Shown: piece after piece, positions 9,632 to 48,206 of the stretch
Position numbering within the stretch: the stretch's first letter is position 1
How the letters are laid out: every line of letters starts with the position of its first letter
NCBI GenBank assembly: GCA_964650355.1
Contig: CAZYTL010000003.1
Span: forward strand, 65,750-129,749
Reading direction: 5' to 3'
Source of the DNA: an uncultured Gammaproteobacteria bacterium
GTDB lineage: Bacteria > Patescibacteriota > Microgenomatia > CAYXHB01 > CAZYTL01
Length of the DNA: 64,000 nt
Program-made: the position numbers and the translations under genes
Notes under the pieces: model-generated
The model's input: only the letters and a program-made list of their open reading frames with translations
What the model was told of the DNA's origin: nothing
The model's database searches: none

Positions 9632-10468
9632 CTAGCCTCCCCCACTCGATTTTGCTCCACTTACATTGGTTGACCATTCCAATACTCTCTCCAATGCCTT
9701 CTCCATCGCCATTTCCCAAAAAGTCACATGCTTCTCTCGTTCCTTATCCAGTAAACCTTTCACCTCTTTTAATGTCATCTCCCATTCCGGGATATAAAAC
9801 ACATGATCGAGTGGCGCTCCCATCACCATTTCCCCTCGTGGTTCCGTCAACATCACTCCCCGCATCCTCCCATCAACATACTCCACCTCTCCCTCTTCTC
9901 CCCTTGTTATCTGCTCCATCTGTCCCTTATCTGTTTCCATCTGCCTGCCCGCCGTAACTTTAGTGTTGGCGGGTGTGCTCTCCTCTTGCTTTGCAGGAGG
10001 AGGAAACAACAATCCCACCACACACCGCCACTCTGCTCCCCGCGCCTCCGGAGGTATCGCCTGCATCCGCTCCAAACAATACTCTACAATCTCCTCATCC
10101 CTCATCACCGTTACCCCGTCCCTCCATCTCCTCATCAGCGCTCCCGGCTCTCGTCCCAAAGCATCAATACTCAAACCTCTCTCTTCCGCCATAATTATAT
10201 AATCGTCATTCCGTAAAGCCGTTGCTTCGTTAGATTGTTCCTCTGTATTTTCCTCTCGCTGTTTTTCGACTCTTAAGCTCTTTAGCCTCACCTCATACAT
10301 TCTGCACCTCACTGCCACATTCGCCTCCAACGTCCTCCCCGTATCCGGCAAATCTATCTCTATCCCCAACTCCTTCGGCATCTCCACCTCCACCTTATAC
10401 TTACCAAACCTCTCCCTTACCTCCAACAACTTCTTCTTATCCTCTGTCACATAGAGAACCTTGACCAT
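9632..10468 (-). CDS. Ham1/RdgB-like non-canonical purine NTP pyrophosphatase paralog with a ~100-aa acidic insertion
   Basis: N-terminus LYVTEDKKKLLEVRERF and C-terminus TEPRGEMVMGAPLDHVFYIPEWEMTLKE...ALERV align with the clear Ham1 gene at 43932..44480. The central insert is low-complexity. Confidence 0.5.
   Translation of the reverse strand: MVKVLYVTEDKKKLLEVRERFGKYKVEVEMPKELGIEIDLPDTGRTLEANVAVRCRMYEVRLKSLRVEKQREENTEEQSNEATALRNDDYIIMAEERGLSIDALGREPGALMRRWRDGVTVMRDEEIVEYCLERMQAIPPEARGAEWRCVVGLLFPPPAKQEESTPANTKVTAGRQMETDKGQMEQITRGEEGEVEYVDGRMRGVMLTEPRGEMVMGAPLDHVFYIPEWEMTLKEVKGLLDKEREKHVTFWEMAMEKALERVLEWSTNVSGAKSSGGG
9986..9998. repeat. palindrome variant CTTGCTTTGCAGG, in-frame in the Ham1-like paralog (PPPAKQEE)
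   Basis: Degenerate copy sharing the GCTTTGCAG core. Confidence 0.55.
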
Positions 10469-10647
10469 TAACTTAATAATAACACTCTATACCTCTGCCC
10501 CAAAGAACATCGGGACCATCCGTGTACAACACCTTAACTCCCCCCACCCAGCCCTGTCCTCAATGCGTCCATTCCATCAGCATCTGCACCGGCACCAAAG
10601 ACCCTATTTGTAAAAACTGCGGTTTCAAAGACCCCTGCTGTGACTGG

Positions 10648-11139
10648 CTATTTTCTTTCTTTTTTATAATTCCCCATCTCCGGTATCACATACCTCACCC
10701 CTCCCCGAGGATCATCCATATCGCCCTCATACCTGGGAATCACATGCCAGTGCAAATGATCCACTGTCCTGCCTGCAGCCCGGCCATCATTCACGCCATG
10801 ATTATAAGCATCCGGCTTAGTATTAATCCTCGGATGTTTCAACGCCTGCGTGCAGAACCAAATTGAATTATCATTAAAAGGATTTTCTAAAAAACGCTTG
10901 TATACTTTCCTTAAGTCCTCACTTAAAATACCCTCAATTACCCTGTCTATTGCATTTTTTAAATCCGTCCATTCCTCTCTCGACAACCCTTTCAAATCAG
11001 GCACATGTCGCACAGGGAAAACTAACGCATGACCTGGAGCCACCGGAAACGGCTCAAATATAGCTATCCATTTATCATCCCGCCAGATAACAATCTCATT
11101 CGGTTTCAAAACACAAAAAGGACAATTCCTTACCATCAT
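10648..11139 (-). CDS. HIT-family (histidine triad) nucleotide hydrolase/transferase
   Basis: HLHWHVIPR histidine triad motif. Confidence 0.8.
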   Translation of the reverse strand: MMVRNCPFCVLKPNEIVIWRDDKWIAIFEPFPVAPGHALVFPVRHVPDLKGLSREEWTDLKNAIDRVIEGILSEDLRKVYKRFLENPFNDNSIWFCTQALKHPRINTKPDAYNHGVNDGRAAGRTVDHLHWHVIPRYEGDMDDPRGGVRYVIPEMGNYKKERK

Positions 11140-11194
11140 GAATCTCTGTTAATATAAACTGACCCCATCATATCACCAATAGTAGACCCAAACC

Positions 11195-11662
11195 ATGAAT
11201 CAAACCCTTCTCCGCATCGCCCAAAAAGGCATCATCTTAAACCAAACCAAAACCAAAATCCTGGTTGTAAAATACTCCACCGCCAAATACACCTCACAAA
11301 AGGTCAAAAACAAACTCGGATTACCAGGCGGGCAAATAGACTTCAGCGAGACCCCTGACGAATCATTTGTCAGAGAAGTAAAAGAAGAAACCGGCATCAC
11401 GATCGTTCCTCTCCTTCCTTTCCATATCTATACTTGGACATACCAAACTGAAACCCACCTAAAACAAATCATCGCCGTCGCCAGGCTCGGAATTTATCAA
11501 TCTGGAAAATTAACTACTCACAAGCAAGAAAGGGAAACCACTATAGAGTTTTCCCAATGGCTACCCATTAAAGAACTTCAACCCAAAGGGTTTATCATTG
11601 ATGAACAGCCCGTCATCACCAAATTCCTTCAATACCAAAAGCAAAATCCCTTCTCTCTTTAA
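11195..11662 (+). CDS. Nudix hydrolase
   Basis: Canonical Nudix box GLPGGQIDFSETPDESFVREVKEETGI. Confidence 0.75.
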   Translation: MNQTLLRIAQKGIILNQTKTKILVVKYSTAKYTSQKVKNKLGLPGGQIDFSETPDESFVREVKEETGITIVPLLPFHIYTWTYQTETHLKQIIAVARLGIYQSGKLTTHKQERETTIEFSQWLPIKELQPKGFIIDEQPVITKFLQYQKQNPFSL

Positions 11663-11683
11663 TCATCCAGCCCACTAATAGCT

Positions 11684-12112
11684 TTACTTCGGTACTTTCC
11701 TCTTCCTCCTCTTCGTCACCACTTTCTCTAACTCTAGGCGCATTCTCTCCAATTCCTCATCCGTCATATCTTCTGCATCCATAAACCTGTTCCTCGCCGG
11801 CTTTATTGACCGAATCATCTCATCCAACTTCAAATGAATCGCCTTCGAATCCCGATTCTGCGTATTCTGAATCAAAAACACCATCAAAAAGGTCACAATC
11901 GTCGTCCCCGTATTAATCACCAATTGCCATGTATCCGAAAACCCAAACATCGGTCCCGTTAACAGCCACACCACAATCACCATCACCGCCAACATAAACA
12001 CCCGAGAAGTTCCCGCCAACTCCGCCACCTTCTTGGCAAACTTCCTAAACACATCATGCACCCCATTATGACTCTCCGTCGCCATCATTACTTCTAAATT
12101 ATGGTTTGTCAT
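11684..12112 (-). CDS. small membrane protein, low-affinity iron permease-like (Fet4/PF04120-like)
   Basis: Two TM helices and the conserved-looking WQLVINTGTTIVTFLMVFLIQNTQNRD...HLKLDEMI. The family assignment is from memory of bacterial Fet4-like proteins. Confidence 0.5.
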   Translation of the reverse strand: MTNHNLEVMMATESHNGVHDVFRKFAKKVAELAGTSRVFMLAVMVIVVWLLTGPMFGFSDTWQLVINTGTTIVTFLMVFLIQNTQNRDSKAIHLKLDEMIRSIKPARNRFMDAEDMTDEELERMRLELEKVVTKRRKRKVPK

Positions 12113-12124
12113 AAAACCAGTTTA

Positions 12125-13102
12125 TCAAAAATCCTCTCCTTCGTCGCCTTCTAAATACTCTTCCAGCTTTCCGGCATAAATCAACGGCACCACCCCGTGC
12201 ATAATATTATTGTTACTCGGCAATTCATACCGTAAACCAGTCCGTTCAGCAATCAACAACACATTCGCCAGCCCGATTGCTGCCCCGTCCACAAACCCCG
12301 GATGAGAAGGAAACAACTTCACCCTGTCTTTCCGATCCAATAACCGCGTCCGCCAATAAAATTCCCTTGTCTTATCCAAATCCACCTTAAAAGGATGCGA
12401 CTTTGAAAAATTAAACTTCTCCATCTCCACTCCTGCCTCTTGATAAAAATCAATTACCGATGTGGACCCATGTACCAAAGGCGCCTCTCCATCGAATCTC
12501 ACCTCTAAATCAGCAATCGCCTTTCTAATCTCCTCCTCAATTAATTCAAATTCCCTTTCTGTCGCCGGATCTCCTTTAATAAACCTCTCTCGCAAACTCA
12601 ACACTCCGGTCTTCAACAACTTATAGCTCTCTAACTTCTCCCTCTTTCCCCACATAAACTGCACCGATCCCCCGCCGATATCTATGCCCGCGATCCCCCC
12701 TTTCCACTCAAAATCACTTGTCATTCCTCTCCAAAACAACTCCATCTCCGCCTCATGGCTCAAAATCCGCACCTCCCACCCCAACTTGTCCTTAATCTTC
12801 TTCACCACATCCTTTGCATTCTCTGCCTTCCTTAATACCTCCGTTCCGATCACCTCCACTCGTTCCACCTTCATCCTTTCCACTTCTGACTTAAACCTCT
12901 GCAACGCCTCCATCGTCTTTACCAACCCCTCCTCTGACACCTGATCACCCTCCTCCATCCCTCTTCCCAACCTGGTTTCCTCTTTATCTTGAAAAATCAA
13001 CTTCAAATTCCCAAAATCCTGCTTTGCAGGACCCACCTCAAATACCAACAACTTGCTGCTATTCGTTCCCTGGTCAACCACTGCCACTCTTGCCTGCTTC
13101 AT
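12125..13102 (-). CDS. Ppx/GppA-family phosphatase (exopolyphosphatase / pppGpp phosphohydrolase)
   Basis: ASKHA-fold motifs VAVVDQGTNSSKLLVFEV and GIDIGGGSVQF. Confidence 0.8.
   Translation of the reverse strand: MKQARVAVVDQGTNSSKLLVFEVGPAKQDFGNLKLIFQDKEETRLGRGMEEGDQVSEEGLVKTMEALQRFKSEVERMKVERVEVIGTEVLRKAENAKDVVKKIKDKLGWEVRILSHEAEMELFWRGMTSDFEWKGGIAGIDIGGGSVQFMWGKREKLESYKLLKTGVLSLRERFIKGDPATEREFELIEEEIRKAIADLEVRFDGEAPLVHGSTSVIDFYQEAGVEMEKFNFSKSHPFKVDLDKTREFYWRTRLLDRKDRVKLFPSHPGFVDGAAIGLANVLLIAERTGLRYELPSNNNIMHGVVPLIYAGKLEEYLEGDEGEDF
13017..13031. repeat. palindrome variant TCCTGCTTTGCAGGA, in-frame in ppx/gppA (GPAKQDF)
   Basis: Variant with C/G at the outer positions. Still a perfect palindrome. 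Confidence 0.7.
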
Positions 13103-13165
13103 TCTCCCATTATATCCGGCTCACTAAAACCTACTCAACACCACCTCTAAACTATTTACTCCTAT

Positions 13166-13600
13166 CTAAGCTGCCATTGGCAAGTCTTCTTTCATCATCT
13201 CTATCAAATCGTCTAACTCGCCTGGAAACGCATGCCTCGCATCATGCCACGTTTTCTGGGAAGCTAATTTATCAGGCTCTTTACCTCCAATAAATAAATC
13301 ATGAAATTCATACGCCAATACAGGAATTCCAGGAGTTAACCTTTCAAATTCTCTTAATTGAACTCCATCGTCCTGGAGTGAACTCAACACCTTCGTTCTA
13401 CTTTCTACTTGTCTATTAACCCGAGCAATAAAACTTGACCTACTGAAATCTCCCGCTCTAAACCAATCTCTATCAGCAATCACCGTCTTTAATAAACCCT
13501 CAAATTCAGTCAGCGAATGCTTTGCCTCCATCACCTCACCAAGAGTCGGCTCACCCATTTCTACCACATTTTCCGAACCAACTACTGGAAGTTCTCCCAT
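13166..13600 (-). CDS. hypothetical protein
   Basis: 144-aa ORF with host-like composition and no motif. Confidence 0.35.
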   Translation of the reverse strand: MGELPVVGSENVVEMGEPTLGEVMEAKHSLTEFEGLLKTVIADRDWFRAGDFSRSSFIARVNRQVESRTKVLSSLQDDGVQLREFERLTPGIPVLAYEFHDLFIGGKEPDKLASQKTWHDARHAFPGELDDLIEMMKEDLPMAA

Positions 13601-13694
13601 ACTAAAACATAGTATAACTTAATTACCTCTTCACCAGCAACTGCGATTTCGTACAAAATCTCTAACTCCGCCTCTAAACTCATCCTCAGCACAC

Positions 13695-14105
13695 TCACAT
13701 CTCCAGCTCATCTTGCCAATAAGCCTCTACCAAATTCTTAGTATTCGGCGAGACCTCATTCTCCATCTCCTTTAACTCCTGCCAGGAAAAATAAGCCAGC
13801 TTATCAAACTTCTCTTTTTCCTTGGTCTCTGGTTTCCCATCCTCTACCTCAGCTAAATACCACACATAACCCATCGTGTATCCGTCTTCTTTAAAATCCG
13901 CTCTTCCCAGTTCCTTCACTATCTCCACCTTTACTCCCAATTCTTCCTCCACCTCCCTTTCCGCCGCCTCTTCGGACCCTTCTCCCTCTTCGATCTTTCC
14001 GCCCGGCGTTTCCCACTGCACTCTCTTAGGAGTATTCCTATGCAACAACAGCACTTTACCGGCCCCATCTAAAATCACGCATCCAGCCAACAAAATCTTA
14101 TCCAT
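13695..14105 (-). CDS. Nudix hydrolase
   Basis: Nudix box GGKIEEGEGSEEAAEREVEEELGV. Confidence 0.75.
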   Translation of the reverse strand: MDKILLAGCVILDGAGKVLLLHRNTPKRVQWETPGGKIEEGEGSEEAAEREVEEELGVKVEIVKELGRADFKEDGYTMGYVWYLAEVEDGKPETKEKEKFDKLAYFSWQELKEMENEVSPNTKNLVEAYWQDELEM

Positions 14106-14263
14106 GTTCCATATTGTATACTACTTTACTTTCACTTCTAAATAGTAGTATATACTCAGTAGCCTCAAACTAACTTAAATTCTAACTCCTCAAATCAAGT
14201 GAAAACTCCGTAATATGTACGAATTTCTTAACTTTTAAGCGAAGGAGTATACACCCTAAATCC

Positions 14264-14806
14264 TTAAATCTGCACTTCCCTTCCCTTCGTTGTATCCCTC
14301 CCTCCTTGCCACTGACCTCTGTACAAATTCACCGCCTCTCCTTTAATCTCTACAAAAAACACCTGCACAAACCTGGCCCCCAATTCCATCTCTACCGAAA
14401 TATTTCCCGCATTAAACATTCCAAAATACAACGCTCCCCTATACCCGGGATCCGCAATCCAAGCTCTCAGCATCAAACCGCTCCTCACTGTCGTCCCCCT
14501 AGGCTTGATTATTGCCGTTATATTCTTGGGCAAATCCACCTCTTCAATCGTCTTAGTCAAATAATACTTACCCGGCTCAAACACAAACTTCGTCACCCTC
14601 TTCGGATCATAAGCCGCCAACTCCACCAGATCAGGCGTCTCCCGTTCCTCAATCCCGATAAACGCTTTCCCTTTCAATTCAAATACCTTATCCAACCGCA
14701 AATCAAACACACACCCTTCAGGACTCTCCAATTCCCTTTCCGCCAATCCCGTCACCAAAGCATGTTTCTTCATTAACTTTCGCAATTCCGAATGTCCCAA
14801 AATCAT
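14264..14806 (-). CDS. dUTPase/dCTP-deaminase-fold protein, paralog A (lacks the Dcd catalytic Glu)
   Basis: VFDLRLD, KPRGTTVRSG, DPGYRGALYFGMFN, RFVQVFF and YRGQWQGG align to Dcd/Dut motifs. GMFN replaces the TLExxN motif, so the Glu is absent. Confidence 0.65.
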   Translation of the reverse strand: MILGHSELRKLMKKHALVTGLAERELESPEGCVFDLRLDKVFELKGKAFIGIEERETPDLVELAAYDPKRVTKFVFEPGKYYLTKTIEEVDLPKNITAIIKPRGTTVRSGLMLRAWIADPGYRGALYFGMFNAGNISVEMELGARFVQVFFVEIKGEAVNLYRGQWQGGRDTTKGREVQI

Positions 14807-14907
14807 AAACTACATTATATATTCCCCATACTCTAAATGCGGAACAATTTATCTATCCCCAAATACCCTCTATTTTTAGAATCCTAATTCCATTATATAA
14901 TTAATCC

Positions 14908-15831
14908 ATGGAAACTGTACCCTTGAAAGAAAAAGTTATAAAAACAATCAGACCACAAGAGATAACTAATTTATTTGAAAAATTTCCAGTAGGCAGCTTT
15001 GGCGAAAATTTTGACCAATTTAGTCTAAAAGATGCTGTCTCGGCCAGATATAAACAGGTATTTCGCCGTAAAGGATATCGAGCATTAATGAATGAAATTA
15101 ATCAACAAATCGATCAAGGAACCGAATCATATGAACAAGAGGCAGTAAAACACTTAGAAAGAATAAGATCAAACGTAGAATACATCCAAACTGACGAAGT
15201 ACAACAAATCGCTCACGAACTAACAGAGAAACAACCAAATTTAGATCCCAAATGGTTGTTGGATGACGCTTTATCCGGACGACAGATGGATCAAATCATC
15301 CACACTGACGAGCGAGGTCGGAGAATTACTCGGTTCAGGCTACTTGATAACTATAGGCCACAATCAAATAGAAACCAGCCTCTTTGCGGTTTCAACTTTC
15401 CTCCTTTACACGGAGAGCATTCAAATATCACGGCTCTCTTTGTAAATGGTGAGCTAGACGAATTACAAACAGGAGGAATTTCCCATATCAACAGCCTAAA
15501 ATTCGAAAACGGTCAAGTAACTTCTCTTTCTTATTCTGGCGTAGATTGGTTTGATACCTCTGAAGAAACCATCAAAGCGAAACATAGATTACCAGACAAA
15601 GTCCAATTACAAAAATTTGGAAATTTCTTTACACTTCATTTCCCGGAACTAGTGTCCCAAACTGCGAACTCCCGAACCTTCAGACTCAAAGCGTCTCCTA
15701 TGTGGAAAGACACAGGCCACAATCAACCGCAAGAAAATACTTATACAGTTACCTTAAACCAAGATGGGCAGATTACAGAAATTAGAAACGGATGGGATAA
15801 ACCTCTCCTCACTCCGGCAACCGCCAGTTAA
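14908..15831 (+). CDS. hypothetical protein on an AT-rich compositional island
   Basis: 307-aa ORF with no recognisable motif. Composition is AT-rich with balanced G/C, unlike flanking genes. Confidence 0.45.
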   Translation: METVPLKEKVIKTIRPQEITNLFEKFPVGSFGENFDQFSLKDAVSARYKQVFRRKGYRALMNEINQQIDQGTESYEQEAVKHLERIRSNVEYIQTDEVQQIAHELTEKQPNLDPKWLLDDALSGRQMDQIIHTDERGRRITRFRLLDNYRPQSNRNQPLCGFNFPPLHGEHSNITALFVNGELDELQTGGISHINSLKFENGQVTSLSYSGVDWFDTSEETIKAKHRLPDKVQLQKFGNFFTLHFPELVSQTANSRTFRLKASPMWKDTGHNQPQENTYTVTLNQDGQITEIRNGWDKPLLTPATAS

Positions 15832-15974
15832 ACTAGTTAAACTCTACACTTCGCAAGTACTCCATCCGCTCACCTTATACTTCCAACACCTAGTCTCCTT
15901 TCCTTTTATCTCACTTCTGTTTAAATCGTTTCTTCATTAGACATAATTCCCCTATCAAGCTACAATAAATTCCA

Positions 15975-16811: not shown

Positions 16812-16834
16812 TTACTACCAACTCTCACCACCAC

Positions 16835-17479: not shown

Positions 17480-17486
17480 CCTGTTC

Positions 17487-19064: not shown

Positions 19065-19067
19065 ACT

Positions 19068-21581: not shown

Positions 21582-21677
21582 ATAAAACTAAGTATTTAGT
21601 ATCATGCCCGTCTAAATTGTCCCCAAACTATTTTCCTGTCTGCATTTATCTGTTTTACATCGGTTTTCATCACTTGT

Positions 21678-24371
21678 CTAGCACTCCGAATAACCGCATC
21701 CGTGACACGTCTTGCATCCCATTTCATAGACCAGTGTCGCATTTCCGCAATCCGGACAAATATCAGCTGACCTGGCCACCAAATGCATCCCCGCTTCCCT
21801 TGATTTTCCATCAGTCACCGGGGGGTCAACTGCCTCATCTTCCCCTTTTTCATCATCTGTAATCTTCAATTGCATCCCGTCCTCAGCCGTTGACTCTTGA
21901 TGCTTGGAATCTGTCGTTACTGCTTGGTGTTGCTCCCCAAACCCAATCAGTCCCATATCTATCGCCATCGCCTTAGCCACCGCATCCGGCAGAGAATAAA
22001 CCTTTCTTGTCCCGAACCCCACTGACCTGGAACTACCGATCCCGGCTAACTGATCCACAATCAACTTTGCTCTCTCACTCGAAGACAAATTACTGTTAAA
22101 CTTCAAAGACTTTGATATCAACCGCCCCAATGCCTCTGCCATCGCCTGAATATCACTCCCTGCTCTGCCAATATTAATAAACACTTCCACCGGCGATCCG
22201 TCCTCATCATGATTCACCGTCACAAACGCTCTTCCGATCGGTGTATCCATCTTATAAGTCGCTCCCACCACCTTCATCGGCCTCAACCACGAAACTGGTT
22301 TATCCTCCATAGCTTTAGCAAAGGAGGGCTGGCCCTCTGTCGTTCCTGCTAAGACGGATTTTTCCGCCAACCCATTTCCTTTATGCTCTTTATCTGATGC
22401 GCTAGCGCGAATCAGAGTTCCCTCTCTCGACCCCTCCCTCATATACGAAATCCCTTTACAACCTGTTTTGTAAGCCAACTCATATAACCTTTTCACCTCT
22501 TCCACCGTATGAGTCTTCGGGGCATTCACTGTCTTACTAATCGATGAATCAGTATACTTCTGAATCAAAGCCTGAATCTCCACATGCTCTTCAGGACTCA
22601 AATCATCCGCTACCACAAAATACTCCGGCAAACTTCCTTTCTCCAAATTCCCCTCTACCAATCCGCCGGAGGCACCATCATTTTGCTTTTTGCTTTTTGC
22701 TTTTTGCTTTTGTTTCATCCACTCCTCATAGAGTGGATGAAACATCGTCCTCTCTCCCAATCGATCCTTCTGAGTATAAACAAACGAAAACACCGGTTCT
22801 ATCCCCGAAGACGCTCCCGCCAGCAACGCAATCTTCCCTGTCGGCGCTTCCGTCAACAGCAATGCATTCCTTATCCCGTTCTGTCGGATCCTTTCTCTTA
22901 TCCCTTCAGGTATCGTCTTCATAAACCCGCTCGCCAAATACTGGTCAGTCTTAAACATGGGAAACGCTCCCTTCTCCTTAGCCAGCTCTATCGATGTCTC
23001 ATAAGCCACATCTCTCAACATCTTGTAAATCTTCTCAATCATCTCCAAAGATTCTGGAGATCCGTATCTCAGCTTCATCTTCATCAGCGCGTCCGCCAAC
23101 CCCAACGTTCCCAATCCTAACCGCCTCTCTCGCAACTGCCTCTTCTGAATCTGATTATATAAATAATTCTCTGCATCTACCGCATTATCCAAAAATCTCA
23201 CCCCCACTTTAATCAACCCTCTATAGTCTTCCCAGTCAAACCCTGGCCCCCCATTCTGCTTTGCAGAAACCAAGGCCGACAAATTTATCGACGACAGATT
23301 GCACACTCCGAACGCCGGCAACGGTTGCTCCCCGCATGGATTAGTAGAAACATTCTTCTCAAAATACCACGTATTATTCATCCTATTCGCCCTGTCCATA
23401 AAATAAATCCCCGGCTCCGCGCTTCCCCACGCCGACTCACAAATCAGATTCCACAACTCTCTCGCTTTTATGGTTTTGTACACTTTTACCGGATACCCTT
23501 TCTTCTCCCACTCTTCCAAGTCTCCGCCCCATTCACCCCGATATTTGGCAAAATCAGTCTCTGGAAATTTCAACTCCCAATCGCCATCCTCCTCCACTGC
23601 TTTCATCAACTTGTCCGACACACACACACTTAAATTCGCCCCCAACATCTTTCCCTGCTCTTTCTTTACCATAATAAACTCTTCTACATCCGGGTGCCAA
23701 TCCCACAACATCATCATCAACGCCCCCCTCCTCGTCCCTCCTTGCTGAATAATATCGTGCGCCGTCACCGAATATAATTCCGCCCAGCTCACCGATCCTG
23801 AACTCGTTCCGTTCACCGCCTTCAAATAAGACCCTCTCGGCCGTAAACTCGACAAATTAAATCCCACTCCTCCTCCCCGAGCACTAATCTCCGTCACCCT
23901 TTCCAAAGTCTTAATAATCCCCTTCCGCGTGTCCTCCGGGTCAGGAATCACAAAACAATTAATCATCGTCGTTTCCGTTCCCGTCCCTGCCGAAGTTAGG
24001 AACCTCCCCGCCGGACAAAAACGAAAATTTTTCATTGCCGCATAAAACTTCTCTTCCCATTCCTCTCTTAACTCAGTAGTCTTCTCCTCTTGAGCCACCG
24101 CCCAGGCCACCCTCCGCCACATCTGTTCCGGAAATTTCTCCATCGGTTCCCCTTTCTTATTCTTCAACGCATATCGATCTAAAAACAACTGCCTCCGAAT
24201 CCCCTCCAACTCCGTTCCTTGATCCATCGCTACAAAATGCCTACCATTCTCTTTTCCTTGATCTCGCCTTTGCTCTCCTGCCACTCTATTCCCACCTCGC
24301 ACATCTCCACCCCCTCTATTCTGATTAGTATTGATTACCTGATCCGGATAACCATTATTTGTCATAAACAA
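21678..24371 (-). CDS. nrdJ: class II ribonucleotide reductase paralog (no ATP-cone) with C-terminal Zn-ribbon
   Basis: NPCGEQPLPAFGVCNLSS. C-terminal CPDCG...CKTCHGCG. Same KQKAKSKKQ insert encoded by an identical TTTTGCTTTTTGC repeat. Confidence 0.85.
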   Translation of the reverse strand: MFMTNNGYPDQVINTNQNRGGGDVRGGNRVAGEQRRDQGKENGRHFVAMDQGTELEGIRRQLFLDRYALKNKKGEPMEKFPEQMWRRVAWAVAQEEKTTELREEWEEKFYAAMKNFRFCPAGRFLTSAGTGTETTMINCFVIPDPEDTRKGIIKTLERVTEISARGGGVGFNLSSLRPRGSYLKAVNGTSSGSVSWAELYSVTAHDIIQQGGTRRGALMMMLWDWHPDVEEFIMVKKEQGKMLGANLSVCVSDKLMKAVEEDGDWELKFPETDFAKYRGEWGGDLEEWEKKGYPVKVYKTIKARELWNLICESAWGSAEPGIYFMDRANRMNNTWYFEKNVSTNPCGEQPLPAFGVCNLSSINLSALVSAKQNGGPGFDWEDYRGLIKVGVRFLDNAVDAENYLYNQIQKRQLRERRLGLGTLGLADALMKMKLRYGSPESLEMIEKIYKMLRDVAYETSIELAKEKGAFPMFKTDQYLASGFMKTIPEGIRERIRQNGIRNALLLTEAPTGKIALLAGASSGIEPVFSFVYTQKDRLGERTMFHPLYEEWMKQKQKAKSKKQNDGASGGLVEGNLEKGSLPEYFVVADDLSPEEHVEIQALIQKYTDSSISKTVNAPKTHTVEEVKRLYELAYKTGCKGISYMREGSREGTLIRASASDKEHKGNGLAEKSVLAGTTEGQPSFAKAMEDKPVSWLRPMKVVGATYKMDTPIGRAFVTVNHDEDGSPVEVFINIGRAGSDIQAMAEALGRLISKSLKFNSNLSSSERAKLIVDQLAGIGSSRSVGFGTRKVYSLPDAVAKAMAIDMGLIGFGEQHQAVTTDSKHQESTAEDGMQLKITDDEKGEDEAVDPPVTDGKSREAGMHLVARSADICPDCGNATLVYEMGCKTCHGCGYSEC
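22681..22712. repeat. tandem (TTTTTGC)n microsatellite inside nrdJ paralog 2; near-identical tract at about 20335-20366 inside nrdJ paralog 1
   Basis: Encodes KQKAKSKKQ and KKAKSKKQ on the minus strand. Confidence 0.8.
23253..23268. repeat. 16-bp palindrome ATTCTGCTTTGCAGAA, in-frame within nrdJ paralog 2 (peptide SAKQN)
   Basis: Exact palindrome. The other copies are at about 41001-41016, 45921-45936, 47957-47973 and variants at 9986-9998 and 13017-13031. Confidence 0.8.
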
Positions 24372-34719: not shown

Positions 34720-36069
34720 ATGCTAAAAAAAATCCTTTTCCTTACCATTCCCCTCTTTCTCCTTCTTCTCCTCATTCCCGTCAAGCTCGCCTATGACCAA
34801 TTTACCCAACCAGTCACTTTCGTGTCTCCCGAAAGCTCTCGTGTCCTCTCTGCCTCCACCGATAAACTAGCTAACAGCTATCAGCTATCAGCTAACAACT
34901 ATGTAATCCTCGGTTTCCTCCCCTATTGGCTTCTCAACCAAGCCGATTACCTTCAATACGACAAGCTCACCCATATCGCCTACTTTGGTATTGAATACGA
35001 CGAGCAAGCTCAACTCCTCACCAAACTTCCTGACGGTAGCCAAGAACTCGGTAACTATCGTCTGGGCCAAAACACCCTCTCCCATGTCATCCGTCTGGCT
35101 CGAGAGAACCAGACCCAACCCATCTTAACCGTCAAAATCCTCAACAACGAAGGTATCCAAGCCGCTGTCGCTCCTCAAAACCGTGCCTCAGTCATTGCCC
35201 ATCTCATCCAAACCATGCAACAACACAACTTCACCGGCCTTAACATCGACTTCGAATATATCCATGAGCCCACCGTCGAAACCCAAACCCAATTCACCCA
35301 ATTCATTAAAGAGCTCCGTCAACAACTTCAGCCAAAGGCTGATCAGCCTCTGGCTGACAATAACTATCAGCTATCAGCCAACAGCTATCAACTAAGTTTA
35401 GACATCTACCCCGACACTGCCGCCAAACAATCCCAACGCCTCTGGCAGCTTACCGACCTGGCCCCTTACGTTGACTACTTCATCGTCATGGGTTACGATT
35501 TCCACCGTACCACCTCTCCTCAAGCCGGGCCTGTTGCTCCCATCCACGGCGCGCCCCAACGCTGGGAAGAAGACCTCAGCACCAGTCTCGCTCAGATTTC
35601 CCAACTGGCTCCTCCTAACCAAATCATCCTCGGTGTCCCCTACTACGGTTATGAATGGACTACCTACACCAACCAGCCCAACTCCGCCACCCTCACCAAG
35701 TCTGGCCAGCTCGCCTCCTATTCTCGCATCAAAGACACCTTCCCCGATTGCCTCAATCCCCAAAACTCTCAATTATCTTTCCCATACTCAATACCTGCCC
35801 GCAATGCTTCGCAAAGCGATGCAGGCGGGCCAAATACTAAATACGAAATACTGAGCTGTGCTCTAGATCCCGACGCCCTTTCTCCCTACCTCATCTATAA
35901 AGACGGCCGCCACTACCAGCAAATCTGGTTTGAAAACCCTCAATCACTTAAACAAAAATACCAACTCGTCAAACAAGCCGGCCTGGCCGGCATCGCCATT
36001 TGGGCCTTAGGCTATGACGCTCCTCACCCTGACCTCTGGAACCTCATCGACCAGGAATTCCACAACTAG
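34720..36069 (+). CDS. glycoside hydrolase family 18 (chitinase-like) domain protein, secreted
   Basis: Signal/TM at the N-terminus. GH18 catalytic motif LNIDFEY (DxxDxDxE). Contains two in-frame copies of the AGCTATCAGCT repeat (peptide N/SYQLSAN). Confidence 0.65.
   Translation: MLKKILFLTIPLFLLLLLIPVKLAYDQFTQPVTFVSPESSRVLSASTDKLANSYQLSANNYVILGFLPYWLLNQADYLQYDKLTHIAYFGIEYDEQAQLLTKLPDGSQELGNYRLGQNTLSHVIRLARENQTQPILTVKILNNEGIQAAVAPQNRASVIAHLIQTMQQHNFTGLNIDFEYIHEPTVETQTQFTQFIKELRQQLQPKADQPLADNNYQLSANSYQLSLDIYPDTAAKQSQRLWQLTDLAPYVDYFIVMGYDFHRTTSPQAGPVAPIHGAPQRWEEDLSTSLAQISQLAPPNQIILGVPYYGYEWTTYTNQPNSATLTKSGQLASYSRIKDTFPDCLNPQNSQLSFPYSIPARNASQSDAGGPNTKYEILSCALDPDALSPYLIYKDGRHYQQIWFENPQSLKQKYQLVKQAGLAGIAIWALGYDAPHPDLWNLIDQEFHN
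34869..34898. repeat. AGCTATCAGCTATCAGCT repeat, in-frame in the GH18 gene (ANSYQLSANNY)
   Basis: Seen directly. Confidence 0.7.
35337..35392. repeat. composite element GGCTGATCAGCC-TC-TGGCTGA + AACTATCAGCTATCAGCC...AGCTATCAACT, in-frame inside the GH18 gene
   Basis: Perfect 12-bp palindrome GGCTGATCAGCC, immediately followed by AGCTATCAGCT-type repeats. Encodes KADQPLADNNYQLSANSYQLS. Confidence 0.75.
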
Positions 36070-39394: not shown

Positions 39395-39545
39395 AACCAA
39401 AATATACACCAGAGTACCACGGCCATGAAGTTCCAAATAATTAGAAACATTCTATCCCATTCTTCCACCCCGTCAACTGAAAAATTTTTTAGCTATTCTC
39501 CCACTTCAGAAACATCAACTCTTATAAACAAACACCCACTCTATC

Positions 39546-40304: not shown

Positions 40305-40358
40305 AAATCAATTATACCAAAATCCTCTCATCTGTTACGCCTTTTTTCAAAAAGTCCT

Positions 40359-41441: not shown

Positions 41442-41565
41442 TCCCTATATTCTAACCCAAGGCCTTACAAAACGCTAAAAACCAAATTATTTCATCCTTA
41501 CCATTTTGCATTTTGCTTGCCCCGTAGTCCTCTGCACTACTGGGGATCTTTGATTTTTGATTTAA

Positions 41566-42198
41566 TTATGTCATAAACGCTTTCTCCTTACACACCCGAC
41601 AATGCGTATGGTCCAACCTCCCCATCTGCTTCTCAAACTTCTCAATCGCTTCCATAATTTCCTCCTTAGAGTCAACAATCTCAAACAACTTCACCGATTC
41701 TTTTCTGATCCGCATATTCTTTACTAACACCTTTGTAATCGCCTTCCAAAAATCTCCGTACAACACAAACCCTTTGTGATGCCCTCTATACAACTTCGCT
41801 AACACCCAGGCAGTAGAAAACTCAGACAAAGTCCCCGTTCCTCCGTTAAACACCACATAAAAATCCGCGTGCTCCAACAACTTAAACATCCTCTCAATAT
41901 AATTACCCGTCTTAATTTCCACATCCGGGATATTTCCCACATACCGACCTTCAAACCCGGGCGCGTCCTTAGGATCAAACGTCACCGTCAGTGTCTCGCC
42001 TCCCCCGGCCTCCGCCCCTTTTGTCGAAGCATCCATCACTCCAGGCCCACCGCCGTTAATAATCGTATACCCCTTTTGAGCCAAAAACTTAGCCGCTTCA
42101 TAGGCCGAATCATACAACTCCTCCCCCGGGTCCGTATCCGAAAACCCGAAAAAGGCAATATTCTTCACCAACCTAGGTATCACCAACTTCCTTTTCTC
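41566..42198 (-). CDS. LOG-family (TIGR00730) Rossmann-fold nucleotide-binding protein
   Basis: GGGPGVMDA and PGGTGTLSEF motifs. Start moved to MEKRKL to remove the overlap with the upstream gene; the track ORF extends to 42288. Confidence 0.7.
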   Translation of the reverse strand, partial: EKRKLVIPRLVKNIAFFGFSDTDPGEELYDSAYEAAKFLAQKGYTIINGGGPGVMDASTKGAEAGGGETLTVTFDPKDAPGFEGRYVGNIPDVEIKTGNYIERMFKLLEHADFYVVFNGGTGTLSEFSTAWVLAKLYRGHHKGFVLYGDFWKAITKVLVKNMRIRKESVKLFEIVDSKEEIMEAIEKFEKQMGRLDHTHCRVCKEKAFMT

Positions 42199-42220
42199 CA
42201 TATCCCCTACTTTACCATAT

Positions 42221-42904
42221 TTAGCCCGCCAATTGCGCATATAAATTTCGCAGATTCTCCCCAAAATCTCCCGACCCAAACAACCCACTATTCACCTCTG
42301 CCATATCTACACCCAAATCTCTCAACATATTTACATTCTCCAGCTTTACCCCCCCATCAACCTCTATCTGAAAATTCACTGACAACTGATCTCTGACAAC
42401 TGACAACTGTTTTACCTTCTCCAATAGCTCATTCTTCATCTTCCGCCCCGAAAACCCCGCCTCAATCGTCATCACCTGCACCACATCCAAATCCCTCCCC
42501 ACCTCCTCCTTTATCGCTAATATCGGCGTTTGCGCATCGATTGACAACCCACATTCCAAACCCCACTCGCCTTTCACTAAACTCACCCACGAGACCTGAT
42601 CCTTAACCACCTCCACCTGCGGCATTATCCGATCAAACCCCACCCCATAACAGCCCTTCATCCACTCCTGTAAATTATCCTCGTCCACCATCAAATGTGC
42701 CTCAAACTTCAACCCTAATCCCTTATTCTTAATTCCCAATTCAATATCTCTGGGCCTTAACGTCTTATTATTAGCATAGATTCCGTCAATAAAATCCACT
42801 TGTACCCACTCAATCAACCCCTGGCTGGCCCCTTTTCGGACCAACTCCACCCTCTGTTCAAAAATCTTTATATCATCAGTCAAAATCCCGGGAACAATCT
42901 GCAT
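42221..42904 (-). CDS. ribulose-phosphate 3-epimerase-like (Rpe family, divergent)
   Basis: TIM-barrel-like pattern with HLMV and QVMTIEAGFSGRK (~ VMSVNPGFGGQ). Confidence 0.5.
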   Translation of the reverse strand: MQIVPGILTDDIKIFEQRVELVRKGASQGLIEWVQVDFIDGIYANNKTLRPRDIELGIKNKGLGLKFEAHLMVDEDNLQEWMKGCYGVGFDRIMPQVEVVKDQVSWVSLVKGEWGLECGLSIDAQTPILAIKEEVGRDLDVVQVMTIEAGFSGRKMKNELLEKVKQLSVVRDQLSVNFQIEVDGGVKLENVNMLRDLGVDMAEVNSGLFGSGDFGENLRNLYAQLAG

Positions 42905-42950
42905 AACCCCATTGAAACATAAACATAAATTAATTTCACCTTCCCCTGCT

Positions 42951-43415
42951 CTAATGTTTTCTTGTTGTCATGAATCTGTATCCTAAAACCACCACCAACC
43001 CATACCCCACCAACTTCAAACTCATATAAATCGCCTCTATTACCGCTCTTAAACTTCCGGTTCCGTCACCATACCCATTCCCTTTTAACAACGTCATCAA
43101 CTCCTCATCTCCTCCTCTCCCCGATGCCCACCACACGGTTACCATCCATCCCAGCCACACCAATATTACCACGTACACCCACAATCCATACTTGGCAATC
43201 AATTCCTTCACCTCCTTAATCTTCCGAATCTCTTCAGAGTAATTGATCATATAAACCAGCCCTAATCCCAATCCCAATAACTCAAACAACCACCCCCAGT
43301 TCTTTACCCACCACCTCATTCCAATCAAACCTCCCAATACAGTTAAACCCAAACCGAGCACCAATCCCCAACTAATACCTAACTTCAACAATCGCCAATT
43401 CACCAACCGCATCAT
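42951..43415 (-). CDS. hypothetical membrane protein
   Basis: Multiple TM helices, W/G-rich. Confidence 0.35.
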   Translation of the reverse strand: MMRLVNWRLLKLGISWGLVLGLGLTVLGGLIGMRWWVKNWGWLFELLGLGLGLVYMINYSEEIRKIKEVKELIAKYGLWVYVVILVWLGWMVTVWWASGRGGDEELMTLLKGNGYGDGTGSLRAVIEAIYMSLKLVGYGLVVVLGYRFMTTRKH

Positions 43416-43479
43416 CTCTCATTAAACCATAAAACCATTACAACATAAAAGCACTAGAACAACCTATCAATATAACTAC

Positions 43480-43935
43480 TTACTTCTCTATGTTACTAAT
43501 CTTCTCCAACCTCCTCTTATGCCTCTCTTCCCCGCTAAACTCCGTCTCCAAAAACGCTTTCACCATTTCCTTTGCCTGCTGAGCGTCTACATAATCCACC
43601 GCCAAAGCCAGCACATTAATGTCATCATCTCTCCTTGCCGCCCCTACCTGCTCCTCATTCAAACCCAACCCACACCGCACCCCCTTAAACTTATTGGCCA
43701 CCACACATACCCCTACCCCGCTCCCGCAAATCACAATCCCACAACTTTTCATTTCCCGCTCTTCGAGCTTCATTACTTGCTGCCCAACCAGCACAGCAAA
43801 ATCCACATAATCATCCTCCTCATCCAACTCTTCAGCCCCGCAATCCACCACTTCATAATCCATGCCCATCAACCACCCTTTCAAGAATTCCTTTAACTTA
43901 AACCCCCGGTGATCAACCCCAATAAAAACTTTCAT
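43480..43935 (-). CDS. rpiB: ribose-5-phosphate isomerase B (RpiB/LacAB family)
   Basis: KVFIGVDHRGF...GIVICGSGVGVCVVANK...DDINVLAL match RpiB motifs. Confidence 0.8.
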   Translation of the reverse strand: MKVFIGVDHRGFKLKEFLKGWLMGMDYEVVDCGAEELDEEDDYVDFAVLVGQQVMKLEEREMKSCGIVICGSGVGVCVVANKFKGVRCGLGLNEEQVGAARRDDDINVLALAVDYVDAQQAKEMVKAFLETEFSGEERHKRRLEKISNIEK

Positions 43936-44480
43936 ACTCCTAGTTTATCACGTAACCTTTCCAATGCTCTCCTTCTCATCGAAACCTGATTCTTCTCCTC
44001 CATCCCCATCTCCGCAAACGTCTTGTCAAAACCCTCAGGAATAAAAATCGGGTCCCACCCAAACGCATACTCTCCTCTTGGTTCTTTTGCAATCATTCCT
44101 TTAACCTCCCCCTCAAACAACCGCACTTGCTCTCCATCATGATATCCTATTACCACCACAGCCCTCGCCCTGCGATCCTTTTCGTTTTCCATCATCCTAC
44201 AAATCCCTTCACACCCTACAGCTTCCAAAAACCAATGAATTAACGCCCCAGGCAATCCGTTCCACGCCTCAAAATACAACTGATTATCTTCCACCATCAA
44301 GGGCCGCTTCAGCTTCTTATAAGCTTGTTCAACTTTATACCTTACTACAGTTCTTCCATCAATCGCCTGAATCTCATCCAAATTCAAATCTCTTCCCTCA
44401 ACCTTAAAACCGCTCCCCAAAATCTCCCTTGCTTCTCGCAGCTTATTCTTGTTCCCAGTCACAAACAAAATCTTCTTCAT
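43932..44480 (-). CDS. Ham1/RdgB dITP/XTP pyrophosphatase
   Basis: ILFVTGNKNKLREAREIL, EAWNGLPGAL and AFGWDPIF. Confidence 0.8.
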   Translation of the reverse strand: MKKILFVTGNKNKLREAREILGSGFKVEGRDLNLDEIQAIDGRTVVRYKVEQAYKKLKRPLMVEDNQLYFEAWNGLPGALIHWFLEAVGCEGICRMMENEKDRRARAVVVIGYHDGEQVRLFEGEVKGMIAKEPRGEYAFGWDPIFIPEGFDKTFAEMGMEEKNQVSMRRRALERLRDKLGV

Positions 44481-45697: not shown

Positions 45698-45719
45698 GGT
45701 GATCAGCCTTTGGCTGATA
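45698..45719. repeat. intergenic copy: GGTGATCAGCCTTTGGCTGATA
   Basis: Palindromic TGATCAGCC...GGCTGATA. Confidence 0.65.
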
Positions 45720-45724: not shown

Positions 45725-45952
45725 TTATCCGAATGATCCTAATACAAAATCATATAACCAGAATATTAATGGTCTCTTTATCATCCAATGAGAGCAGCCA
45801 GGGCATCCCAAACCAGCCTGACATGGAAAACATACCTCCTTTTGACTATAAACCGGAATAGGCATAATTAAAACCACAACCAACAACCCCACCATCAACT
45901 TCTTCTTCCCGCTCCATTGAATTCTGCTTTGCAGAACCTTCATTAACTCCAC
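45725..45952 (-). CDS. possible small secreted Cys-containing peptide (weak)
   Basis: Signal-like KKKLMVGLLVVVLIMPIPVYSQ, then 38 aa with CFPCQAGLGCPGC. Overlaps a copy of the ATTCTGCTTTGCAGAA palindrome. May be spurious. Confidence 0.25.
   Translation of the reverse strand: MELMKVLQSRIQWSGKKKLMVGLLVVVLIMPIPVYSQKEVCFPCQAGLGCPGCSHWMIKRPLIFWLYDFVLGSFG
45921..45936. repeat. ATTCTGCTTTGCAGAA palindrome (in the weak small ORF 45725..45952, or intergenic)
   Basis: Exact copy. Confidence 0.8.
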
Positions 45953-46290: not shown

Positions 46291-46322
46291 CCTATTCCCC
46301 CAAACAAAATAAGTCTCTGTCT

Positions 46323-46625
46323 ATGCTCAAAAAAACTCTCCTCCTCTTTATCGAATTTAATATCCTGTTCCTTCTATTTAGCTTTATTGGTTTTATTCTC
46401 ATCACCGCCGTCACCCCTGCCCCGCCTGGTGATAGAATTATCAGCCTTGGACCCTTTATAAGAAAAGGTGCATACTTCGGCTACATCCTTAGCATTATAT
46501 CCACATTAGCGCTTAACATAAAAAACCTAAAATCCAAAAAATACGAATTAATCACCACCTGTCTCTTCTTCTCTGCCCTATATTTCATTCTTCTCTGGAA
46601 GGGTGGCCCGTTTTTGGGAATTTAG
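46323..46625 (+). CDS. small membrane protein (MLKK-family paralog 2)
   Basis: 100 aa. Shares the MLKK.LLL N-terminus and TM topology with the preceding gene. Confidence 0.35.
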   Translation: MLKKTLLLFIEFNILFLLFSFIGFILITAVTPAPPGDRIISLGPFIRKGAYFGYILSIISTLALNIKNLKSKKYELITTCLFFSALYFILLWKGGPFLGI

Positions 46626-46632
46626 CCTTCAA

Positions 46633-46950
46633 CTAGAACATCCCCAACTCTGCTTTTGCTTCCTCGCTCATCTTCTCCATACTCCACGCCGGTTCCCATG
46701 TCAATTCAATCTCCACCGCTTCCACCCCTTCTAAACTCTTCACCGCCTTCGTCACCAAACTCTCAAAAGTACTGGCCAGCGGGCACCCCGGACTCGTCAA
46801 CGTCATCTTCACGAACACCTTGAACCTTGAATCTTGAATCTTGAGTTTAACATCGTATATCAAACCCAAATCCACAATATTAATCAACAGCTCAGGATCC
46901 ACCACCTCCTTTAACTTCTCTCTCACCTGGTCTTCTGTTAACATCACCAT
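46633..46950 (-). CDS. SufT/DUF59 (MIP18-family) Fe-S cluster assembly protein
   Basis: VVDPEL.INIVDLGLIYDV...TLTSPGCP pattern. Confidence 0.65.
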   Translation of the reverse strand: MVMLTEDQVREKLKEVVDPELLINIVDLGLIYDVKLKIQDSRFKVFVKMTLTSPGCPLASTFESLVTKAVKSLEGVEAVEIELTWEPAWSMEKMSEEAKAELGMF

Positions 46951-46979
46951 AAATCAAATCAGAAATTAATGAAGACAAC

Positions 46980-48206
46980 TTAAACCTTAAACATCTTCAT
47001 CGCCTTCTCCACCCCTTCCACCAACTTATCCACGTCCTCCTTCGTATTATAAACATAAAAACTTGCCCGCACCGTCGCCATCAAACCCAAATAAGTATGT
47101 AAAGGCATTGCACAGTGGTGCCCTGCCCGCACGTACACATTATCCGAGTCCAACACCTGCGCCACATCATGAGGATGAATCCCATCTACTGTAAATGAAA
47201 TCACTCCCCCTCGTTTACCCACATCATTCGGCCCGTAAACAGTCACGCCTCTCAGCCCATTTAGCTCTTTCAGCCCATATCGCACCAGCTCGCATTCGTG
47301 AGCTCTCACCTTCTCCATCTCTAAATTGTCCAAATAATCCACGGCCGCTCCTAATCCAATCGCTCCCGCAATATGTGGTGTTCCTGCCTCAAACTTATAA
47401 GGCGCCTCTTTAAATTCCGCTTTGTCAAAACTCACCTCACTAATCATTTCTCCCCCATACATAAACGGGGCCATCTCTTCCAACAACTCCTCTCTCCCCC
47501 ACAACACGCCGATCCCCGAAGGCCCCAGCATCTTATGCCCGGAAAACGCATACCAATCACACCCCAACTTCTGCATATCCACTTTCATATGCGGCACCGC
47601 CTGCGCCCCATCGATTAGTAATTTCGTTGCCTTGTTGTTTTGTTTCACCACTTTACTTATCCTCTCGATATCATTAATCGTTCCCAACACATTCGACACG
47701 TGAGTCACCGCCACCAGCCTGGTTTTCTTCGTCAAAGCTCGTCCCAAGGCTTCCATATCTAACAACCCCTTCTCATTTATCTGAACAACTTTTAACTTCG
47801 CCTCCGTAATCCCCGCCAACACCTGCCAGGTCACCAAATTAGCATGATGTTCCATCACCGAAATCACTATCTCATCTCCTCTGGTAAAATTCCTCAATCC
47901 CCAACTATACATCACCATATTCAGCGCCTCCGTCGCATTCCTCACAAACACAATTTCATTCTGCTTTGCAGAAATAAATTTTGCCATCTTTCCCCTCGCG
48001 CCTTCATAAGCCATTGTTGCCTCTTCGCTCAACTTATAAATTCCCCGGAAAATATTCGCCGTGTACTCTTCATAATACTTCCGCACCGCCTCCACCACTG
48101 GCTTTGGCTTCAAACTCGTGGCCGCCGAATCCAAATACACAATCGGCTGCCCTTCAATCTTCCGCTTAAAAATCGCAAAATCCTGTTTAATATTTTTCCC
48201 GATCAC
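46980..48206 (-). CDS. sufS: cysteine desulfurase SufS (class V aminotransferase)
   Basis: PLP-lysine region FSGHKMLGPSGIGVLWG, active-site Cys RAGHHCAMPL. GTG start with SD AAGGGAG. Confidence 0.85.
   Translation of the reverse strand: MIGKNIKQDFAIFKRKIEGQPIVYLDSAATSLKPKPVVEAVRKYYEEYTANIFRGIYKLSEEATMAYEGARGKMAKFISAKQNEIVFVRNATEALNMVMYSWGLRNFTRGDEIVISVMEHHANLVTWQVLAGITEAKLKVVQINEKGLLDMEALGRALTKKTRLVAVTHVSNVLGTINDIERISKVVKQNNKATKLLIDGAQAVPHMKVDMQKLGCDWYAFSGHKMLGPSGIGVLWGREELLEEMAPFMYGGEMISEVSFDKAEFKEAPYKFEAGTPHIAGAIGLGAAVDYLDNLEMEKVRAHECELVRYGLKELNGLRGVTVYGPNDVGKRGGVISFTVDGIHPHDVAQVLDSDNVYVRAGHHCAMPLHTYLGLMATVRASFYVYNTKEDVDKLVEGVEKAMKMFKV
47957..47973. repeat. ATTCTGCTTTGCAGAA palindrome, in-frame in sufS (FISAKQNE)
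   Basis: Exact copy. Confidence 0.8.

Follow-up and report, generated by a model that had tools for sequence, protein, structure and literature searches.

Why does one 16-nt word recur inside unrelated genes of a single bacterial genome, and is it the encoded protein or the DNA itself that keeps it there? The question is raised by a 64-kb stretch of DNA from an uncultured bacterium (contig CAZYTL010000003.1, positions 65,750 to 129,749; hereafter the window), in which the first-pass annotation had noted six copies of a perfect palindrome, far more than expected, all on minus-strand genes, and had proposed a selected or propagated element. The excess stands: the word ATTCTGCTTTGCAGAA has four exact copies in the window, all on the plus strand, against none in 100 dinucleotide-preserving shuffles, and the other two of the six are hairpin-preserving variants. 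The word is not a perfect palindrome, as its reverse complement is a different 16-mer; it consists of a 6-bp inverted repeat with arms TTCTGC and GCAGAA around a TTT loop, preceded by a conserved unpaired 5' A. The answer that we tentatively prefer, at somewhat under an even chance, is that it represents one of two or more families of very short hairpin repeats, similar to repetitive extragenic palindromic sequences (REPs), that are propagated at the DNA level and lie inside genes. The copies of this first family (family A) all fall within minus-strand genes, as had been noted; three of the four exact positions agree with those first reported, and the fourth, given as starting at 47957, starts one base later.

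9980..10002, plus strand: family-A variant CTCCTCTTGCTTTGCAGGAGGAG, antisense to a Ham1-like paralog (9632-10468, minus strand); encodes P-P-P-A-K-Q-E-E
13016..13031, plus strand: family-A variant ATCCTGCTTTGCAGGA, antisense to ppx/gppA (12125-13102, minus strand); encodes P-A-K-Q-D
23253..23268, plus strand: exact family-A copy, antisense to nrdJ (21678-24371, minus strand); encodes S-A-K-Q-N in a loop insertion of ~6 amino acids
41001..41016, plus strand: exact family-A copy, antisense to a class-A beta-lactamase-like gene (40359-41441, minus strand); encodes S-A-K-Q-N in the linker upstream of the catalytic domain
45921..45936, plus strand: exact family-A copy, between FeS-assembly and TIM genes, in an open reading frame (ORF) of 75 amino acids (45725-45952, minus strand); reads L-Q-S-R-I
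47958..47973, plus strand: exact family-A copy, antisense to sufS (46980-48206, minus strand); encodes S-A-K-Q-N at a homologous, non-inserted position

Allowing up to three mismatches to ATTCTGCTTTGCAGAA added just one copy, that at 13016 (two mismatches; 0.55 expected), and the 9-mer core TGCTTTGCA, present six times on the plus strand and never on the minus strand (0.44 expected), brought in the copy at 9987-9995. The ppx and Ham1 sites, first described simply as variants, are not random near-misses: at 13016 both partners of one base pair are changed (TCCTGC..GCAGGA) with pairing kept, and the same changed pair occurs at 9980-10002 within a 10-bp stem that includes one G-T pair, so that the compensated form is seen twice in the window. 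The hairpin is contained in the minimum-energy fold of all six family-A contexts, and flanking bases lengthen the helix in several; fold z-scores are modest, from -0.03 to -3.8. The flanks of the copies are unrelated to one another and nothing outside the 16 nt is conserved, so family A is a short word and not a piece of a longer repeat. A longer repeat or miniature inverted-repeat transposable element was considered and rejected because the flanks have nothing beyond the motif in common, either around the window copies or around non-coding copies in relatives. An inverted pair of some shorter word was likewise rejected, as the half-sites are not enriched in the window (GCAGAA, 8 observed and 8.7 expected; TTCTGC, 26 and 24). 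Nor is there a general enrichment of hairpins: outside families A and B, the window has an ordinary number of hairpins with 6-bp stems and 3-nt loops.

As a separate observation, tandem arrays of the heptanucleotide TTTTTGC (4.4-4.7 units) lie at 20333-20365 and 22681-22711, inside both ribonucleotide reductase genes. In the sense direction (GCAAAAA) they encode segments rich in K, Q, A and S, and they have GCAAA in common with the motif core. A 7-nt unit is unusual within essential genes, where the gain or loss of a unit would alter the reading frame.

The second family (family B) has the form TCAGCC-N3-GGCTGA. It has five perfect copies in the window, where the expectation is just 0.13 even if one mismatch is tolerated. 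Loop sequences differ (tct, aaa, tct, ttt, aat) and the arms are invariant; counting both families, the window has nine perfect copies and no copy with one mismatch.

8123..8137, no strand assigned: family-B TCAGCC-tct-GGCTGA, between genes, 22 nt past the stop codon of a VWA gene (8159-9565, minus strand)
35328..35357, no strand assigned: tandem pair of family-B units (TCAGCCaaaGGCTGA, TCAGCCtctGGCTGA), in frame in a GH18 gene (34720-36069, plus strand); encode QPKAD-QPLAD
45702..45718, no strand assigned: family-B ATCAGCC-ttt-GGCTGAT (7-3-7), ~28 nt upstream of the TIM gene's probable ATG
55067..55081, no strand assigned: family-B TCAGCC-aat-GGCTGA, between genes, 35 nt past the stop codon of an 882-amino-acid gene (52384-55032, plus strand)

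Units of both families thus have arms of 6-7 bp and a 3-nt spacer and span 15-17 nt, or about five codons, and they are found as single copies, in tandem and clustered; SIGNIFICANCE likewise speaks for the hairpin-repeat reading. The GH18 pair is an exact 30-nt (2 x 15), 10-amino-acid in-frame insertion relative to the syntenic ortholog in a related locus (L259). Nucleotide-level identity, complementary arms, tandem and unit-length insertions, the presence of two families, and a recent lineage-specific expansion are the grounds for proposing REP-like propagation at the DNA level.

The family-A copies themselves indicate which level is conserved. Coding DNA is divided almost evenly between the strands of the window (26.7 kb plus, 30.9 kb minus), yet all six copies are inside minus-strand genes. 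The shortfall on the plus-strand side does not reach significance (p about 0.05-0.17), and an orientation fixed by replication is not separable from one fixed by transcription. Because the stem is self-complementary, orientation alters the loop alone; a loop of A gives Lys, Gln and Ser codons and a loop of U gives Leu, Phe and Cys codons. Coding copies are in the A-rich-loop orientation, and coding tolerance may explain this sense bias. Five copies, those in clear minus-strand genes, share the frame xCT GCA AAG CAR xAx (S/P-A-K-Q-N/D/E). It had been stated that the frame is always the same, which fails for the copy at 45921, read in its 75-amino-acid ORF as LQSRI. The coding status of that ORF is putative: it weakly resembles a small, Cys-rich ORF that a relative (L202) has at the syntenic place, and the copy probably lies in the n-region of a signal peptide.

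All six occurrences of AKQ in minus-strand genes use GCA followed by AAG CAR, GCA making up 25% of Ala codons there, and the three SAKQN copies use TCT, 14% of Ser codons in the same genes. In plus-strand genes the three AKQ occurrences all read GCC AAA CAA, and the motif is absent. More generally, codon choice is dominated by strand composition, as follows from the contrast between plus- and minus-strand genes in the use of AAA for Lys (89% and 34%), GCC for Ala (59% and 12%) and AAC for Asn (68% and 17%). What is kept in family A is the nucleotide sequence, and the encoded peptide is a by-product. The positions occupied tolerate five hydrophilic residues: they are insertions in loops, linkers, the probable n-region of a signal peptide and, in one case, a conserved site that is permissive. 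That five copies encode x-A-K-Q-x in hydrophilic, surface-like segments would suit a conserved SAKQN protein motif, or a coincidence of codon usage. Such an explanation is effectively refuted by the zero copies expected by chance, by the identity of all synonymous positions in minority codons, by the copy in another frame, by the presence of the same DNA in non-coding tRNA and rRNA flanks of relatives, and by the lack of the peptide in orthologs.

Comparison with orthologs, which had been suggested as a check on whether homologs lack AKQ at the aligned position, bears out the view of a selected or propagated element, kept at the nucleotide level: the peptide or the DNA is missing at three of the four testable sites (ppx, beta-lactamase-like and sufS). 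In ppx the loop GPAKQDFGN adds four residues relative to all 17 aligned homologs. In nrdJ, the loop is short ('xD-G') in 118 of 120 homologs, and the insertion of ~6 residues is found only in the window and in the closest homolog (P0242), a syntenic protein 69% identical to it (L259). The site in that homolog, GTT ACT GCA AAG CAA AAT, is two mismatches from the motif, so that the nrdJ copy is old and is perfect only in the window. In the beta-lactamase-like gene the motif lies within a 10-amino-acid insertion that is absent from the syntenic L259 ortholog, and in the Ham1-like paralog it lies inside a 25-amino-acid insertion relative to the two other Ham1 paralogs of the window. Lineage-specific insertions thus hold four of the five clear coding copies.

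The fifth, in sufS, has no insertion. There the window has FISAKQ-NE in place of the family consensus FIGAK[DNS]xxE; at the DNA level it reads ATT TCT GCA AAG CAG AAT against ATT GGA GCT AAG ACC AAT in the nearest relative, and a synonymous change is among the differences. This copy arose through substitution at a permissive site. Of the three origins that the first-pass annotation had put forward (an uptake or recognition signal, the target of a methylase or nickase, and a mini palindromic insertion tolerated within proteins), the insertion fits best, given these four of five copies and the 2 x 15 nt in GH18. It falls short at sufS and, in other genomes, at gyrA, ilvD and sua5, all of which carry copies at ungapped positions.

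About 75 kb from the closest relatives compared (L201-L203, L259, L262) show no expansion of family A or family B, and in these ~75 kb there is just one degenerate orthologous copy and one copy with one mismatch. Since the close relatives are mostly without copies, the expansion is recent and lineage-specific. In 711 kb of metagenome loci found via ppx, mostly distant, there was no copy. The closest relatives compared share with the window its strand skew (0.36-0.51). The plus strand of the window contains 21,374 C and 9,109 G (33% and 14%), and GC skew is between -0.28 and -0.57 in every 4-kb interval, whatever the strand of the genes. The window is from the UBA1400-like genome of an ultra-small bacterium of the Microgenomates, part of the candidate phyla radiation (CPR). 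Its gene content is typical of CPR, with two ribonucleotide reductases and NrdR, ThyA, dihydrofolate reductase (DHFR), several paralogs of dCTP deaminase, Ham1 and NUDIX proteins, PBP1-type enzymes and DUF5667, and the named relatives of its SufS are Gottesmanbacteria, Curtissbacteria and 'Patescibacteria group'. The order UBA1400 of the Microgenomates (Ca. Chazhemtobacterium, Collierbacteria, Beckwithbacteria) is already known from a publication to have an extreme disparity between strands, which was read there as a sign of one-directional replication (PMC7143001).

A scan of a one-genome-per-species collection for the 16-mer gave at least 118 stretches. Among the matches listed, most are single in their genome, which is consistent with chance, and 22 of 118 are from CPR genomes, mostly Microgenomates: seven Levybacteria, three Shapirobacteria, Gottesman-, Curtiss- and Microgenomates-group genomes, five unspecified Patescibacteria, three Saccharibacteria and one Peribacteria. 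With CPR presumably making up ~2-3% of the collection, this is roughly an eight-fold enrichment of CPR among the matches listed. Other Microgenomates have at most two stretches per genome among these matches. A viral origin was rejected, the 55 matches in viral contigs being single and consistent with chance.

Coding copies in these other genomes are again in unrelated genes (RuvC, ExoIII-like, rpsB, Wzy, 6-phosphogluconolactonase, IlvD, Sua5, GyrA), with the gene sense nearly always TTCTGCAAAGCAGAAT and with five in the SAKQN frame, six in LQSRI and one in ILLCR. In the gyrA genes of two Microgenomates, 20 identical bases surround the motif, at the same position in both, within DNA that is 70% identical; identity at third codon positions is 47% outside the motif and 5/5 inside it. 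One of these genes (L081, 677-4492) also contains an intein with a LAGLIDADG domain, upstream of the motif, which is at the same GyrA position as in the other genome (L098). In a Shapirobacterium (L004, 6083-6130) an 11-residue loop insertion in RuvC consists of two full motif copies and one half copy, in two frames, and another locus (L019) has a tandem cluster of copies. Loci with one exact copy often carry further members with other loops or compensated stems, and covarying relatives of the hairpin are found in other genomes, for example GACTGCtttGCAGTC. In CPR loci, further small palindromic repeats of the types ATTCCCGCGCAAGCGGGAAT and GTCATTCTGAGC adjoin motif copies (L020, about 6215-6240; flanks in L003 and L083), from which it follows that these genomes carry several families of hairpin repeats.

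Non-coding copies elsewhere abut the ends of stable RNAs or sit in leaders, in both orientations. The hairpin is directly 5' of a tRNA-Lys (L104), 0-1 nt past tRNA 3' ends (L020, L034), 8-9 nt ahead of the 5' end of 16S rRNA (L050, L079) and next to a Shine-Dalgarno sequence (L059). In a Levybacteria 23S gene (L093), palindromic insertions of ~165 nt lie at 1046-1216 and 2853-3018, and also at about 827-1002; they start and end with covarying 15-nt hairpins, T-Y-N-TGC-N3-GCA-N-R-A, and the helix 98 region (5819) is made up of the motif itself, with a variant at another insertion boundary (5432). These insertions resemble rRNA intervening sequences and are bounded by hairpins of the same form as the units in the window, with the difference that they are long elements within rRNA, whereas the window copies in protein-coding genes are solitary units of 15-16 nt.

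Such locations raise the possibility that the hairpin is selected for a function in the transcript, where an RNase or RNA-binding protein would recognise it or be blocked by it; it would serve in the maturation of stable RNAs and be present in some mRNAs too. All copies are in transcribed DNA, pairing is preserved and several window copies have helices extended by their flanks; family-B copies are found just past stop codons and in a 5' untranslated region. We nevertheless consider this explanation improbable, because a structural role alone leaves the exact stem and loop sequence unexplained, orthologous positions in close relatives are without copies, the carrier genes share no common function and the fold z-scores are modest. 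Intrinsic terminators, which have a GC-rich hairpin and U tract at a gene end, are not what the copies resemble, most copies being intragenic, and the window has 15 terminator-like sites, not above chance (11.3 +/- 3.1 in shuffles). An Rfam search of the window returned one tRNA only, so no Rfam family matches the hairpins.

A different role, as duplex binding sites for a dimeric protein with half-sites one helical turn apart, as in chromosome organisation by parS, matS or Noc sites, is to our mind quite unlikely. The 7-3-7 and 6-3-6 layouts fit, as do the invariant arms and free spacer of family B, the exact sequence shared across Microgenomates classes at low copy number, the clustering of intragenic copies within 38 kb and the conservation of one site in gyrA of two genomes; parS, matS and Noc sites do tolerate intragenic positions. 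If a protein recognised the sites, one would not expect both half-sites to change symmetrically, as they do at 13016 and 9980-10002, and this compensated variant makes binding sites the weakest of the options still alive. In addition, the closest relatives have no sites, the abutting tandem copies at 35328-35357 would be odd for a dimer, and the spacer of family A does not vary in the window and has a single orientation there. The window yielded no ParB, nor canonical parS (TGTTNCACGTGAAACA, with up to two mismatches allowed), to which the family-A sequence is unrelated.

The units behave like hairpin repeats of REP type, though the resemblance has limits. REPs and their composite arrays (bacterial interspersed mosaic elements, BIMEs) are, like the units here, short hairpin inverted repeats that form several families per genome, occur singly, in tandem or in clusters, show species-specific expansions and in part lie just downstream of genes. 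They are 20-40 nt long, extragenic and imperfect, with a GTAG or CGTC tag (PMC3733652). The units here are many-copied and often clustered hairpins too; they are 15-17 nt long, perfect and untagged at their flanks, and are mostly in frame inside genes, five or six of the six family-A copies and two of the five family-B copies being within ORFs. New copies would arise by a DNA-level copying or correcting process acting on the hairpin. Candidate routes are unit-wise insertion, short-patch templated conversion at sites already resembling the core GCA-AAG, and arm-to-arm template switching, which would keep the palindrome perfect. Selection on proteins would then leave only in-frame, harmless copies, making SAKQN, LQSRI and QPxAD by-products. 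If the host makes any use of them, it would be in processing or at the ends of transcripts, in line with suggestions for REPs; only the copies at tRNA and rRNA ends in relatives hint at this.

Several points weigh against such propagation. The copies in sufS in the window and in gyrA, ilvD and sua5 elsewhere are substitutions at ungapped positions, which is not what a simple insertion element predicts, and copies of this kind require short-patch conversion or a gradual drive at core-like sites. A Pfam scan found no transposase or HUH/RAYT-like gene (RAYT, REP-associated tyrosine transposase) among about 50 ORFs of the window, and the one published complete genome of the lineage was reported to lack mobile elements (PMC7143001). 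The extragenic location, the length and the tag that are hallmarks of REPs are missing, the counts for both families cover 64 kb of genome, and the copying mechanism is one that we infer throughout.

The first-pass annotation had also compared the element with the Rickettsia palindromic elements (RPEs), which are 100-150 bp relics of mobile elements. The likeness is that RPEs, too, are palindromic repeats in frame in protein-coding genes, where they add tolerated peptide segments. Insertion relative to orthologs is seen here in ppx, nrdJ, the beta-lactamase-like gene, Ham1 and GH18, and not in sufS, gyrA, ilvD and sua5. The unit here is 15 nt, without the 100-150 bp and conserved internal sequence of an RPE, and some copies are substitutions and not insertions.

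Copies that arise by substitution fit the suggestion of a DNA uptake or self-recognition signal of the type of the Neisseria DNA uptake sequences (DUS) and Pasteurellaceae uptake signal sequences (USS), in which the competence machinery would favour DNA with the word, and biased uptake and recombination would drive it into permissive codons. Known uptake sequences use the two orientations about equally, do not by themselves form hairpins and are accompanied by many one-mismatch copies. Family A resembles them in being an over-represented word that enters weakly constrained codons through substitution, with a frame bias, a cost to protein conservation, dialects in related taxa and a host with competence genes. 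The changed residues in sufS (G to S, N/S to Q) and in the ilvD copy elsewhere (the usual AGK to QSR) are at sites that partly matched and were weakly constrained, and the frames are biased toward harmless peptides. A published genome of the UBA1400 lineage encodes ComEC, DprA, ComEA and type IV pili and is reported to be without CRISPR or restriction-modification genes, besides the mobile elements (PMC7143001), and natural competence has been shown in Saccharibacteria (PMC10633639). On the other hand, the density of about one copy per 11-16 kb (four exact copies and two variants in 64 kb) is about ten times lower than the roughly one per kb of known uptake sequences. The six copies, admittedly a small sample, are in a single orientation; one-mismatch copies are absent and half-sites are not enriched. 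Nor would such a signal account for two unrelated word families in one genome, for compensated variants, for tandem and unit-length insertion, or for the low numbers in other Microgenomates, and no uptake signal has been described for CPR in the literature searched. We retain it as a rival, although an unlikely one.

The third suggestion, a methylase or nickase target, is improbable, since restriction-modification genes are missing from the genome published for the lineage (PMC7143001). Another known word to compare is the highly iterated palindrome HIP1 of cyanobacteria (GCGATCGC), a short palindrome over-represented in coding regions and kept at the nucleotide level. HIP1 is an uninterrupted 8-mer with about one copy per kb that is linked to methyltransferases, its function being debated. 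The units here are interrupted and of low density, in a lineage reported to lack restriction-modification genes.

Returning to propagated hairpin repeats, a bolder form of the idea is that a class of five-codon (15-nt) units in Microgenomates, not described before, copy or convert themselves in frame into genes and also into rRNA insertions and the flanks of tRNA and rRNA genes. No smaller propagating repeat compatible with coding sequence would be known. Their mechanism would depend on the hairpin and work on single-stranded DNA, perhaps in connection with one-directional replication and strand asymmetry in UBA1400. We regard this form as speculative and rather doubtful. The 15-mer was not found in any paper of the literature searched, which likewise contained no description, for CPR, of uptake sequences or of palindromic repeats in frame. 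The strand asymmetry, by contrast, has been published before. If confirmed genome-wide, the in-gene hairpin words would mean that short hairpin repeats in compact CPR genomes are not confined to intergenic DNA and that they also shape proteins, through loop insertions and forced residue changes (SufS, NrdJ, GyrA, IlvD). They would also give a testable handle on a sequence-specific activity (copying, uptake, RNA processing or binding) in an uncultivated, strand-asymmetric lineage. The words are usable as markers for lineage assignment, and they call for caution in annotation and in alignment-based inference on the genes that carry them.

Two other regions of the window deserve mention. At 292-4891, a tyrosine integrase (292-1260), a tRNA-Ile with the rare anticodon TAT (2324-2396, minus strand) and a TraG/VirD4-like coupling protein (2564-4891, minus strand) occur together and may represent an element integrated at a tRNA gene. 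The regions 9632-24890 and 38780-44480 form a dense cluster of genes for nucleotide metabolism and nucleotide sanitising, with three Ham1 paralogs, three dCTP-deaminase/dUTPase-like genes, the two ribonucleotide reductases with NrdR, ThyA, DHFR, a dCMP deaminase, NUDIX and HIT.

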